A DNA stretch of 64,000 nucleotides, from positions 118,525 through 182,524 of the forward strand of contig CAVOMX010000025.1 of the NCBI GenBank assembly GCA_963697165.1, read 5' to 3'. The position numbers were made by a program. The DNA is from Candidatus Bathyarchaeota archaeon (GTDB lineage Archaea > Thermoproteota > Bathyarchaeia > Bathyarchaeales > Bathyarchaeaceae). Each line of letters starts with the position of its first letter. Position 1 is the stretch's first letter. Positions 21,001 through 24,000 of this stretch are shown here, one piece after another.

Positions 21001-24000
21001 ACTTCTTCTGCAGCGTAAAATGCAAAAAGAAATTCAAAAGAAACAGAAGCAAATTCGCCGACAAATAAAAAATCGGCTTTTTAAAGTGCATAATCACGAA
21101 TTTTAATTATGTGTTCTTCTATAAACCGCAACAATTGATAACCAAACAGTATAGCGGCAACATACGGAGCCCACAAAATCACTGGCCAATTTCCAGGAAT
21201 GTAATGCCACAAATCAGACTGGGTTGCAAACACTTCCATAAGAACCAGTGAAAAAAGCCCAGCAATAGCCAAGTAAAATTGTTCTTTAACATTATTTGTT
21301 TTGCCATTGCGTTTTCTGTTAAGCATTAGAACCGCCCATGCACCTATGAATGCAAAGAAGAGAATGAACCAATTTTGGTTAAAGTCAAATAGTGAGTTGC
21401 ATACCCCAAAAACAAGGTTACTCTATAAAAACCTTATTTATTTTCCCCAAAAAACTCGAATCAACAAAAAAACAAACCCAAATACAATCAACAGGGCACA
21501 CCGCCAAAAGAACCAAACCATGAGAATCCTTATGTAAAACCTGACGCATCAAAGAATTCGTGAAAAAAAGGGGCCGTCGGCTAGCATGGTCTAGGCTCTG
21601 AGCCTCGGACGTTCGGGACCCCGGTTCAAATCCGGGCGGCCCCACCAAAAGCTACGCTAAAAGGGATAAACAAAAAAATGTACCTAAAAACTAGGCTAAT
21701 TTATTTCTTTTCTCGCTTAGCAATCTCTTTGGCAACTATAACTCCAGAAGCAGACGCTTGAATGAGTCCTCGGCTTACTCCAGCTCCGTCACCGATAGTA
21801 AACATGTTCTCGATTCTTTGTTTCCAGTTGATCAGTCAACTCGAGCCTTGAGGAATAGAACTTAACTTCTATTCCATAAAGCAACGTGTCGTTCGAGTTT
21901 ACTCCTGGAGCCACCTTATCCAACGCCTCAAGCATCTCTTTGATGTCAGACAAATAGCGGTAGGGCAAAACGAAGCTGAGGTCTCCTGGCGTGGCATTCT
22001 TGAGGGTTGGAACACACAGGCTCCGTTTTATCCGCTCCTCTGTTGAGCGGCGTCCAGCCTTTAGGTCGCCTAGCCTCTGAATGATTACGCCTCCGCTGAG
22101 CAGGTTTGAGAGTCGTGCAATATATTTTCCGTAGGCTATGGGTTCTCTGAATGGTTCTGTGAAAGCTGTGCTGACCAAGATTGCAAAGTTGGTGTTTTTT
22201 GTTTTCCGTTCAGCATAGCTCTGTCCGTTCACTGTTAAGATGCCATCATAGGATTCGGTGATAACTTCTCCGAGAGGCGAAACACAGAAGGTCCGCACCT
22301 GATCATCAAACGATTTAGAGTGATAAATCAGCTTGGGCTCATACAAGGTCTTAGTTAGTTCCTCCATGACAGCAGCTTGAAGCTCCACCCTGACGCCGAT
22401 GTCCACAGGATTGTTCAAAGTTTTCAGACCAAGAACCTCTGCCTCAGTTTTCAACCACTCGGCGCCGATTCTTCCAGGCGCCACAATCACATATTTTCCA
22501 TAGAACTTTTCGCCCTTTGTTGTCTCAACACCTTCAACCTTGCCGTCTTTAACCAAAAGGCTCTTAACGTCTGTTCGGGTCCGAATGTCAACCCTACCTT
22601 CAAGATGACTACGCATCTTACGAAGAGTCTCAGCACATTTTTCAGTGCCCATATGCCGAACTTTCTGGGAAACAAGCTTCAACCCAGCAAGAGAAGCTTT
22701 TCGTTCGAGTTCATCAAACTTTTCTGGACCCACACCATAAAGATGCTTAGTAGCCCCAAACTTCAGATAAACGTCATCAACATAATGGAGCAACTCCCAA
22801 AGTTGCTCTTCGGTGCAGTATTCGTTAAGCCATCCACCAACTTCTGTTGACAAAGTAAGCTTTCCATCACTAAAAGCGCCAGCGCCGCCCCAACCAGCCA
22901 ACAGGGAGCACGGGTCACAGTTCACGCAGCCCAAGCCTCTACTGGCAGGACATTTGCGCCGATCAATAGCTGAACCTTTATCCAAAAGCAAAATACTGAG
23001 GTTTGTTTTGTCAGCTAACTCAAGAGCAGAAAATATTCCAGCCGGACCAGCGCCCACAATTATGACGTCGAAATTCATCAAGGGTTCCTCCGGAATTCCA
23101 AAACTACATAGAATAGGTGCAATATATGTGTTGGCTGGAAAGCAACAAACTAAACAATAAGCCAATGTTAGAAGCAGAAGATAAACGGTTCAGTTTAGCT
23201 ATTTTGGCTTTAGCAAATTTTTGCAGATACAAAAAACTGTGGATACTCATTTTGTTTCTTCCTCTTTTTTAAGAGTCTTATCCATCAGTTTCCGAAGAAT
23301 AGGAACAGCTTCCTGTTCGGTAACGGATTTTGTGAAAACTGAAACTAAACTGATCTTGTTCGTTTTTTGGGCAAGAAGTTCAGCTAATAGGCGGGCAATT
23401 GTCATATTTCTGTCTCCAAGCAACACTGAGGAGAGAGGTGAACCAACCAAGTTCTTTGGTTGCGGCATAGCCACAGCCAATGTGCCCAGCTTGTCTTCGC
23501 CTTCACTCAAAAACAGTTGGTTCGCATTTTTTGTTTCTATGTAAACGGCAAAAAATGACGTGCCCTGTTCATTATGCTCTTCTTTGATGATTTTTGCTCG
23601 TGACAACCCCGATTCTCCATGCCATTAATAGCAGGGTCAAGCGTCTATTTAGTATTTTCAAACAAATAGGCAACTAAAAGGTTTACAGAGTTGTGGAGTA
23701 CACTGTGCTTAAGCTGGTCTCCCTGAAGTTTTTGTTCAGTTTTATCTGCCCGAAACACAGCGTAGACACTTTCTTGCTCACAGGAGTGTAGACTTTCAGA
23801 ACTTTTCGTTTGTAATCAACTTCATGCAGGATACCAATTCCCAAAAAATGGTCTTCCTCATCTTTTAGCCCCACAAGCAAGCCCTGCTCGTCTCCTTTAC
23901 GTATCACTTTAACCCGTTTTCCGAAGTGCTCCTCAACAGATTTAATGTTGCGTCTCATTAACTGTTTTCACTCTCCTTTAACACAACAAGGAGAACAGTA

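Follow-up and report, generated by a model that had tools for sequence, protein, structure and literature searches.

A gene of the PAC4L family (PAC4/LpdD fold) lies intact within the window, that is, the whole 64,000-nucleotide stretch of Candidatus Bathyarchaeota DNA analysed here, and we propose, with a probability of about 0.55, that its product assists the prFMN-dependent UbiD decarboxylase of the archaeal mevalonate pathway as an accessory protein. In this pathway AcnX is the phosphomevalonate dehydratase, and AMPD, the UbiD enzyme in question, is the anhydromevalonate phosphate decarboxylase. The proposal is based on gene context and fold: the PAC4L family was shown to be homologous to eukaryotic PAC4 and to have the fold of bacterial LpdD, and gene order in two archaeal classes supports the mevalonate-type UbiD (AMPD) as the family's partner at the genomic level. 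Because the family is paired with the gene for this enzyme in most relatives, PAC4L is more likely a helper of the UbiD decarboxylase than of the proteasome.

The gene and its flanks comprise the following features, the spacer, its two elements and the T6 run being read from the sequence.

23247..23606, minus strand: PAC4L, an open reading frame of 119 amino acids with a TTG start and a TGA stop
23607..23682, minus strand: spacer of 76 nt that separates the start of PAC4L from the stop of a Clp1-like gene, which is broken
About 23644-23659, minus strand: A/T-rich stretch in the spacer upstream of PAC4L
23615-23618, minus strand: GGAG ahead of the PAC4L TTG
23231..23236, minus strand: T6 run, 11 nt past the PAC4L stop codon
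23077: likely true start (ATG) of a gene for an FAD-dependent protein (MNFDVIIVGAG), about 169 nt downstream of PAC4L

The first-pass annotation had proposed a single-copy gene at this place, which held, with one PF16093 locus detected in this 81%-complete genome; the gene is intact. The TTG start agrees with the N-termini of the homologues, an L/M-SRAK opening is present in 7/7 close relatives (seven genomes taken from a contig-level genome scan), and dN/dS values of 0.08-0.23 against these relatives reveal purifying selection. The A/T-rich stretch and the GGAG may represent a promoter and a ribosome-binding site belonging to PAC4L itself, and the T6 run is a possible archaeal terminator signal. 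Given this run and the gap of about 169 nt, PAC4L and the FAD-dependent gene are probably separate transcription units. That the latter is the downstream neighbour had been raised earlier as a caveat and is indeed the case here. As a general functional partner it was rejected, since it adjoins PAC4L only in one genus-level group (3/6 genomes of family f1 and 7/7 close relatives) and is set apart by the gap with its T6 run.

At the sequence level, the window protein matches the Pfam PAC4 model PF16093 over residues 27-90 with 37.6 bits (cut-off 31; E 2.2e-9), as annotated before. When a profile (A1) built from 64 representatives of the family was compared with all PDB sequences at E<=10, human PAC4 was retrieved twice (5wtq_A, 1.1e-7; 8qyj_M, 1.3e-7) and the sole further row was noise at E 0.96, in agreement with the earlier statement that PAC4 is the only match of solved structure. 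The printed alignment displays the motifs L..LAVA, S..LLGD and LA.RLA.KTNK common to PAC4L and PAC4. An earlier claim of a sequence-level link between PAC4 and LpdD stood only in part. A Pfam scan of the A1 members at E<=0.01 found PAC4 in 53/64 and the LpdD model PF21758 in 12/64, and one member, P0159, exceeds both cut-offs (PF21758, 32.6 bits against a cut-off of 27); however, the PF21758 matches of the other 11 are sub-threshold, and the window protein has none at E<=1. Searches of the PDB at E<=10 with A1 and with A3, a profile of the 12 PF21758-matching members, retrieved PAC4 and missed LpdD, and a word-index search with P0159 returned only 15 archaeal relatives and did not reach LpdD. 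PF21758 is labelled 'LpdD_chaperone' in the Atlas (Pfam 38.1). A match to this model is also present in the control genome of Methanosarcina acetivorans. No paper describing the archaeal PAC4L family was found.

The structural relationship to LpdD emerged from the predicted fold. An AlphaFold2 model built with A1 reached a pLDDT of 95.2 and a pTM of 0.88, reproducing the confidence of the earlier model, and was used in place of a single-sequence model that was unusable (pLDDT 47.2); it describes the protein as a small beta-sandwich with two helices. Foldseek matches of this model at E<=1e-3 were PAC4, PAC3, Pba3/4 and LpdD only, with E 1.1e-7 for PAC4 (8qyj_M), which confirmed the fold assigned previously. 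VIA-align Z scores were 14.5 for PAC4, 13.8 for Pba, 12.8 for PAC3 and 11.8-12.9 for LpdD, and the next unrelated chain scored 7.3. The model superimposes on 8qyj_M with an rmsd of 2.3 over 111 aligned residues at 23% identity, and on LpdD (8p4w, 8pzh, 8po5, 8pzo) with an rmsd of 2.3-2.6 over 106-108 residues at 8-9% identity. As the first reading had noted, the histidines of the LpdD metal site (His35-His61-Asp63) are not kept: no column of the 97 PAC4L orthologues described below keeps His at >=70%. Only N27 and G41 are invariant among them, and of the acidic columns E35 (90/97) and E76 (87/97) alone are conserved.

To place the family in its genomic context, 301 Thermoproteota genomes were searched with the A1 profile, and 7 kb was fetched on each side of every orthologue. 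PAC4L was present in 97/301 genomes, and in 63 of these 97 loci the gene directly downstream, on the same strand, is the best UbiD homologue, which makes the gene order claimed previously stronger than had been stated. According to ORF calls, the two genes overlap by 1-59 nt in 58/63 pairs, 29 of these overlaps being of 4 nt. The pairing spans 9 of 17 families in two classes (f13, 45/45; f3, 5/5; f2, 4/14; f4, 2/2; f5, 2/3; f6, 1/1; f9, 2/2; f12, 1/1; f15, 1/1). UbiX is inserted between PAC4L and UbiD in two loci, both of f9, and PAC4L-UbiD-AcnX_L-AcnX_S operons occur in f9, f12 and f15; in 2/3 genomes of f7, UbiD-AcnX lies 4-6 kb upstream of PAC4L on the same strand. Within 7 kb on either side, the only real gene families common to Bathyarchaeia and f13 are three, DUF460-like, PAC4L and UbiD. 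The UbiD of the present genome has as its best match the PAC4L-adjacent UbiD in 5/5 f13 genomes tested (268-292 bits, versus 149-155 for the paralogue). The 63 paired loci do not count as independent events, since a single ancestral origin may account for the pairing.

The two genes are non-adjacent in 34/97 genomes (two of these loci end within 117 nt downstream of PAC4L and are not scorable), including this genome and 7/7 close relatives, where the UbiD-AcnX block has been relocated away from PAC4L. In the present genome UbiD heads the operon UbiD-AcnX_L-AcnX_S-IPK-IDI2-polyprenyl synthase (GGPS) on a separate contig (C24), as an earlier caveat had indicated, and UbiX is found on yet another (C17), so that PAC4L, if it acts on them, would act in trans. 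The uncoupled PAC4L copies retain N27, G41, T42, S59 and G64 in 34/34 cases. UbiD is present in 184/204 genomes without PAC4L, and AMPD-bearing lineages that lack PAC4L are common, which weighs against the proposed role. One genome with PAC4L and no UbiD (G036) was dropped as a counter-example; an assembly gap is likely, because AcnX is missing too while its sister G068 has both UbiD and AcnX. A search with A1 among 8000 candidates gave no fused PAC4L-UbiD protein at E<=1e-3, a weak negative result.

In the mechanism that we propose, PAC4L would act as a dimer that accepts the reduced cofactor produced by UbiX, or else holds apo-AMPD, and would thereby promote the formation of active holo-AMPD, its role being that of a transient chaperone or of a small subunit. 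Complex prediction with the AMPD of this genome (A2) and PAC4L (A1) scored 0.00 in two runs without controls and says nothing either way, so that the evidence on PAC4L function is that of gene context and fold. In the parts of the sources consulted, LpdD is described as binding prFMNH2, activating UbiD enzymes and pulling down with UbiD, and as co-transcribed with a UbiX homologue (PMC10865409), whereas, against the need for a helper, the Methanosarcina mazei pathway works in E. coli with AMPD and prFMN synthase but without a helper of this kind (PMC12547664). The first-pass reading of PAC4L as the archaeal counterpart of LpdD is thus partly sustained: PAC4 homology, the LpdD fold and the pairing with UbiD (in two loci also with UbiX) stand, but the window protein has no PF21758 match at E<=1, the family has no conserved His column, and PAC4L is uncoupled from UbiD in this genome and its close relatives.

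The public annotation would instead make PAC4L a chaperone of proteasome assembly in archaea, a functional orthologue of PAC4 that acts on the assembly of the alpha ring or the half-proteasome. Besides the Pfam score, the two human PDB hits and the common motifs, this reading can claim the best fold match, which is PAC4 within a human proteasome assembly intermediate, and some NCBI records named 'proteasome assembly chaperone 4 family protein'. The genomic data point away from it, and we regard it as unlikely, in agreement with the earlier prediction that the protein is not a proteasome chaperone. Proteasome subunits are encoded within 7 kb in 0/97 PAC4L loci, the three proteasome genes of this genome are on other contigs (C3, C9, C12), and proteasome genes occur in 301/301 genomes, as opposed to 97 for PAC4L. 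Their copy number does not track PAC4L either, being mostly 3 with and without it and mostly 5 in the PAC4L-less families f18 and f20. PAC4 functions in a heterodimer with a paralogue of the PAC3 type, and in this genome (81% complete) no PF10178 (PAC3) match was detected at E<=0.1, a search that was also silent in all 14 control genomes.

Two further explanations concern the meaning of the pairing itself. PAC4L might serve AMPD without binding the cofactor, either as a small structural subunit or as a factor for oligomer assembly, much as other UbiD decarboxylases have their small D subunits; the frequent start-stop overlaps, which suggest equimolar co-translation, and the lack of conservation of the metal and cofactor-linked residues of LpdD would fit such a role. 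Nevertheless, purifying selection still maintains the single PAC4L copy where co-transcription with AMPD has been lost, and AMPD orthologues of many lineages have no such subunit, which leaves this a minor possibility, if the best placed of the alternatives. Least probable appears to be that PAC4L is unrelated to UbiD and tied to nucleic-acid processing through DUF460/YqgF-like and Clp1-like proteins, the UbiD pairing being merely inherited order. A DUF460/YqgF-like gene does lie upstream on the same strand in 60/97 loci of both classes, so that synteny alone does not single out UbiD; a Clp1-like gene is upstream in 24 loci, and the order DUF460-like, Clp1-like, PAC4L outlasts UbiD in this genome and in 7/7 close relatives. 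However, an HhH-GPD gene of opposite orientation parts Clp1 from PAC4L in most Bathyarchaeia, no overlaps of PAC4L with either gene were seen, unlike those with UbiD, and the Clp1-like gene is broken here while PAC4L is intact.

The PAC4L family ranges over Bathyarchaeia, ammonia-oxidiser-like Nitrososphaeria and Asgard archaea, the membership of Helarchaeota (Asgard) being taken from source names and the Atlas taxon line; metagenome scans with A4 and P0198 for the gene context in Asgard archaea gave no confirmed locus. If PAC4L is the proposed AMPD helper, AMPD in PAC4L-bearing lineages would be served by a dedicated factor for cofactor loading or assembly that has so far gone unrecognised. 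The archaeal mevalonate pathway, on which all archaeal membrane lipids depend, would gain a further conserved member, shared by Bathyarchaeia and the marine ammonia oxidisers, an abundant group; annotations currently call it hypothetical or a proteasome chaperone. Helpers of the LpdD type, so far a rarity known from bacteria, would then reach into another domain and serve another class of UbiD substrate, which would be relevant to attempts to engineer UbiD enzymes, or the ATP-saving pathway of archaea, in host organisms. The origin of eukaryotic PAC4 would also become testable: more speculatively, and with the odds rather against it, PAC4/Pba4 (perhaps also PAC3/Pba3) could descend from an archaeal AMPD helper that was reused for proteasome assembly after the eukaryotic lineage dropped the AMPD route. 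In archaea, no function should be derived from the name 'proteasome assembly chaperone 4 family'.

Among known systems, VdcD and the prFMN maturase PhdC/YclD resemble PAC4L as small genes of UbiD/UbiX operons that, in the sections consulted, are described as needed for or improving holo-enzyme formation (PMC10865409, PMC13040415); they differ in having no detected similarity to PAC4L and are absent among its fold and sequence matches. PAC4/Pba4, acting with PAC3/Pba3, is the closer relative by Pfam, profile, identity and Z score, but PAC4L is a single gene with no PAC3-like partner found (the PF10178 search being silent in controls too), shows no genomic link to proteasome genes, is patchy where the proteasome is universal, and shows the conserved UbiD pairing. 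LpdD of Lactobacillus (Lactiplantibacillus) plantarum (8po5, 8pzo, 8pzh, 8p4w; PF21758) has the same fold and about the same size, at far lower identity, and the PAC4L family has no conserved His to correspond to H35/H61/D63. The client of LpdD is an aromatic-acid decarboxylase, whereas that of PAC4L would be AMPD, and prFMNH2 binding, described for LpdD, is a prediction for PAC4L. LpdD and, in most of its relatives though not in this genome, PAC4L are encoded beside UbiX and/or UbiD genes, as lpdB-lpdD in L. plantarum (from the portion of PMC10865409 consulted) and as PAC4L-UbiD or PAC4L-UbiX-UbiD in archaea, and both accompany only some UbiD enzymes.

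The gene under study, a gene with the PAC4/LpdD fold (PAC4L), and its neighbours in the window are arranged as follows.

21789-23165, minus strand: FAD-dependent protein (Pfam FAD-depend_C, HI0933-like), downstream of PAC4L
23247-23606, minus strand: PAC4L, open frame of 119 aa, TTG start, TGA stop
23683-24972, minus strand: broken gene of a Clp1-like P-loop protein, immediately upstream of PAC4L
24969-25625, minus strand: DUF460-like gene, 218 aa, upstream of PAC4L; its DUF460 and Tex-YqgF-like matches are weak and below threshold
25803-26495, plus strand: RadB-type recombinase, divergent, upstream of the DUF460-like gene
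26524-27069, plus strand: CDP-archaeol synthase (CarS), divergent, upstream of the DUF460-like gene

PAC4L matches Pfam PAC4 (PF16093) over residues 27-90 with 37.6 bits (cut-off 31) and is the sole PF16093 locus of its genome, a Bathyarchaeia MAG (81% complete) whose closest public relatives bear the labels Candidatus Bathyarchaeum or Bathyarchaeota. A word-index search (433 candidates) gave 401 proteins matching at E<=1e-3, the few names among them being 'hypothetical protein' or 'proteasome assembly chaperone 4 family protein', and the family is small: clustering at 50% left 98 representatives matching at E<=1e-3, or 37 when the threshold is set to E<=1e-10. Among the window gene and seven close relatives pairwise dN/dS was 0.08-0.23, and the start was identical in 8/8. 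PAC4L is a genuine gene, and purifying selection acts on it.

An AlphaFold2 model of PAC4L using A1, an alignment of 64 full-length family representatives, reached a pLDDT of 95.2 and a pTM of 0.88, with six strands and two helices predicted. Foldseek found 15 matches to this model in the PDB at E<=1e-3, and among those listed were PAC4, PAC3, yeast Pba3/Pba4 and Lactiplantibacillus plantarum LpdD, the prFMNH2-binding helper of UbiD enzymes, whose Pba3/4 fold had already been published (accessible text of PMC10865409). VIA-align Z scores were 14.5 for PAC4 (8qyj_M), 13.8 for Pba (2z5b_A), 12.9-11.8 for four LpdD entries and 12.8 for PAC3 (2z5e_A), as against 7.3 for the next unrelated chain. 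Judged by sequence, the family is nearer PAC4 than LpdD: the A1 profile matched human PAC4 (1.1e-7) with no other credible hit among PDB sequences at E<=10, and a profile of the 12 members touching the LpdD family PF21758 likewise gave human PAC4 and nothing else credible. At E<=0.01, PAC4 was found in 53/64 A1 members and PF21758 in 12/64; a single member, P0159, exceeded both curated cut-offs (PAC4, 34.4 vs 31; PF21758, 32.6 vs 27). In the Atlas, where PF21758 is labelled 'LpdD_chaperone' (Pfam 38.1), 15 of 30 feature neighbours fell in PF21758-carrying clusters, mostly archaeal and most commonly from Promethearchaeota, and two distant family representatives bear Helarchaeota names. PF21758 also matched Thermotoga maritima and Methanosarcina acetivorans among 14 control genomes, above the cut-off in one of the two.

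This kinship would fit a proteasome assembly chaperone of the PAC4 type, a reading against which genomic context argues. No proteasome subunit lay within 7 kb of PAC4L in any of 97 loci, and the three proteasome genes of the MAG sit on contigs other than that of PAC4L. Moreover, in 301 Thermoproteota genomes at least 85% complete, Pfam Proteasome was universal (301/301), whereas PAC4L (A1 search) occurred in 97. Nor does proteasome gene number track PAC4L, being mostly three, four in family f13 and mostly five in the PAC4L-free families f18 and f20. A PAC3-type gene was not found in the MAG by a search that gave no match in control genomes either.

PAC4L was present in all Bathyarchaeia families sampled (about 41/46 genomes), in 45/45 genomes of f13 (probably ammonia-oxidiser-like; complete, about 1.6 Mb), in families f15, f19 and f24 and in one f30 genome, and was not found in the remaining families of the 301-genome search; Pfam UbiD was present in 280/301 genomes. 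ORFs were called within 7 kb on either side of 96 other PAC4L genes and the window gene, and blastp was run with the UbiD of the MAG. UbiD lay directly downstream of PAC4L on the same strand in 63/97 loci (f13, 45/45; f3, 5/5; f2, 4/14; f4, 2/2; f5, 2/3; f6, 1/1; f9, 2/2; f12, 1/1; f15, 1/1), and the two ORFs overlapped by 1-59 nt in 58 loci and by exactly 4 nt in 29, although longest-ORF calls may overstate the overlap. The pair was never adjacent in f1 (0/6), f7 (0/3), f8 (0/2), f10 (0/1), f11 (0/1), f19 (0/6), f24 (0/3) and f30 (0/1); two of the 34 non-adjacent loci stop within 117 nt downstream of PAC4L and are uninformative. These counts are not independent events, since the pairing probably has a single origin and was passed on by descent. 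Unbiased clustering of neighbouring ORFs, Pfam scans and gene maps point to the ancestral order CarS< RadB< DUF460-like> Clp1-like> (HhH-GPD<) PAC4L> UbiD> AcnX_L> AcnX_S> HD< dTMP-kinase-like>, from which uncoupled lineages (PAC4L> HD< dTMPK-like>) differ by the loss of the UbiD-AcnX block; f7 has UbiD> AcnX_L> AcnX_S> HhH-GPD< PAC4L>. In 42/45 f13 genomes a 148-aa ORF (e.g. L088:6516-6959) precedes PAC4L on the same strand, ending about 18 nt before it; it gave no Pfam or NCBIfam match and is dissimilar to Clp1.

The single UbiD gene of the MAG opens an operon with both AcnX (phosphomevalonate dehydratase) subunits, large and small, IPK (an amino-acid-kinase-family gene), type 2 IDI (an FMN-dependent dehydrogenase) and a polyprenyl synthase; since this operon makes up the lower archaeal mevalonate pathway, the enzyme is by context the anhydromevalonate phosphate decarboxylase (AMPD). 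Of the two UbiD paralogues in f13 genomes, the one adjacent to PAC4L was the better match to this AMPD in 5/5 tested (268-292 bits vs 149-155).

In the MAG the pair is split, with PAC4L on contig C25, AMPD on C24 and UbiX, the prFMN synthase, on C17. The layout DUF460-like, Clp1-like, PAC4L, FAD-dependent protein recurs in 7/7 close relatives, with no UbiD within 8 kb, and the divergent RadB/CarS arrangement is retained in many Bathyarchaeia families. The FAD-dependent gene adjoins PAC4L only in this group and is far more conserved (88-95% identity among the seven relatives vs 69-87% for PAC4L); its likely true start is an ATG at 23077, and it is probably a separate transcription unit, since about 169 nt containing a T6 run separate PAC4L from that start. 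The Clp1-like gene can be aligned along the full length (425 aa) of an intact orthologue, with in-frame stops at 24373-24375 (TGA), 24259-24261 (TAG) and 23968-23970 (TGA) and about 55 residues readable only in other frames; as GluRS and ABC ATPase genes on C24 are each split into two ORFs, indels introduced in assembly and a true pseudogene are equally likely explanations. The window PAC4L is an uncoupled but conserved family member. Uncoupled copies retain N27, G41, T42, S59 and G64 in 34/34. In A1, N27 and G64 are invariant and G41, T42, P48, S59, A75 and E76 almost so; across the 97 Thermoproteota orthologues N27 and G41 alone are invariant, f13 proteins deviating at T42, P48 and G64.

On gene context and fold together, the best-supported function of PAC4L is to assist the archaeal mevalonate UbiX/UbiD step, as a chaperone or as a small subunit, with a probability of about 0.55, the mechanism being predicted. 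The first-pass annotation had described a single PAC4-matching gene with the PAC/LpdD fold, paired with UbiD in relatives, which we confirm; its proposal of a UbiD partner is upheld in part, by the pairing with an AMPD-type UbiD and the LpdD fold, and weakened by the absence of any PF21758 match in the window protein at E<=1 and of a counterpart to the LpdD His-His-Asp site in the 97 orthologues. Also against a UbiD helper, the DUF460-like gene, upstream on the same strand in 60/97 loci, is about as conserved a neighbour, being with UbiD the only one common to Bathyarchaeia and f13 in 14-kb windows; UbiD persists in 184/204 PAC4L-free genomes; and the Methanosarcina mazei pathway functions in E. 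coli with AMPD and prFMN synthase alone (accessible text of PMC12547664). One genome, G036 (f8, locus L044), carries an intact PAC4L without UbiD, probably through an assembly gap, since AcnX is also undetected in this 98%-complete assembly, unlike in its sister G068, which has both. G024 (f24) and G056 (f19), 92-95% complete, gave no match to Pfam Flavoprotein (PF02441, UbiX/Dfp family), and both carry UbiD, AcnX and PAC4L.

An A1 search at E<=1e-3 (8000 candidates) found no fused form of PAC4L, which is weak evidence against a UbiD helper. Within a literature coverage that excluded subscription journals, no paper was found in which a PAC4-like protein of archaea is connected with UbiD or with the mevalonate pathway, and the accessible text of an archaeal mevalonate gene survey (PMC11052028) mentions neither UbiX nor a helper. 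The LpdD paper (PMC10865409) was the only one found to bring UbiD together with the proteasome-chaperone fold; a term search of its accessible text gave no 'archaea'. Among the loci described here, both of family f9 place a UbiX homologue (59-61% identical to that of the MAG) between PAC4L and UbiD, and this PAC4L-UbiX-UbiD order recalls lpdB-lpdD of L. plantarum.
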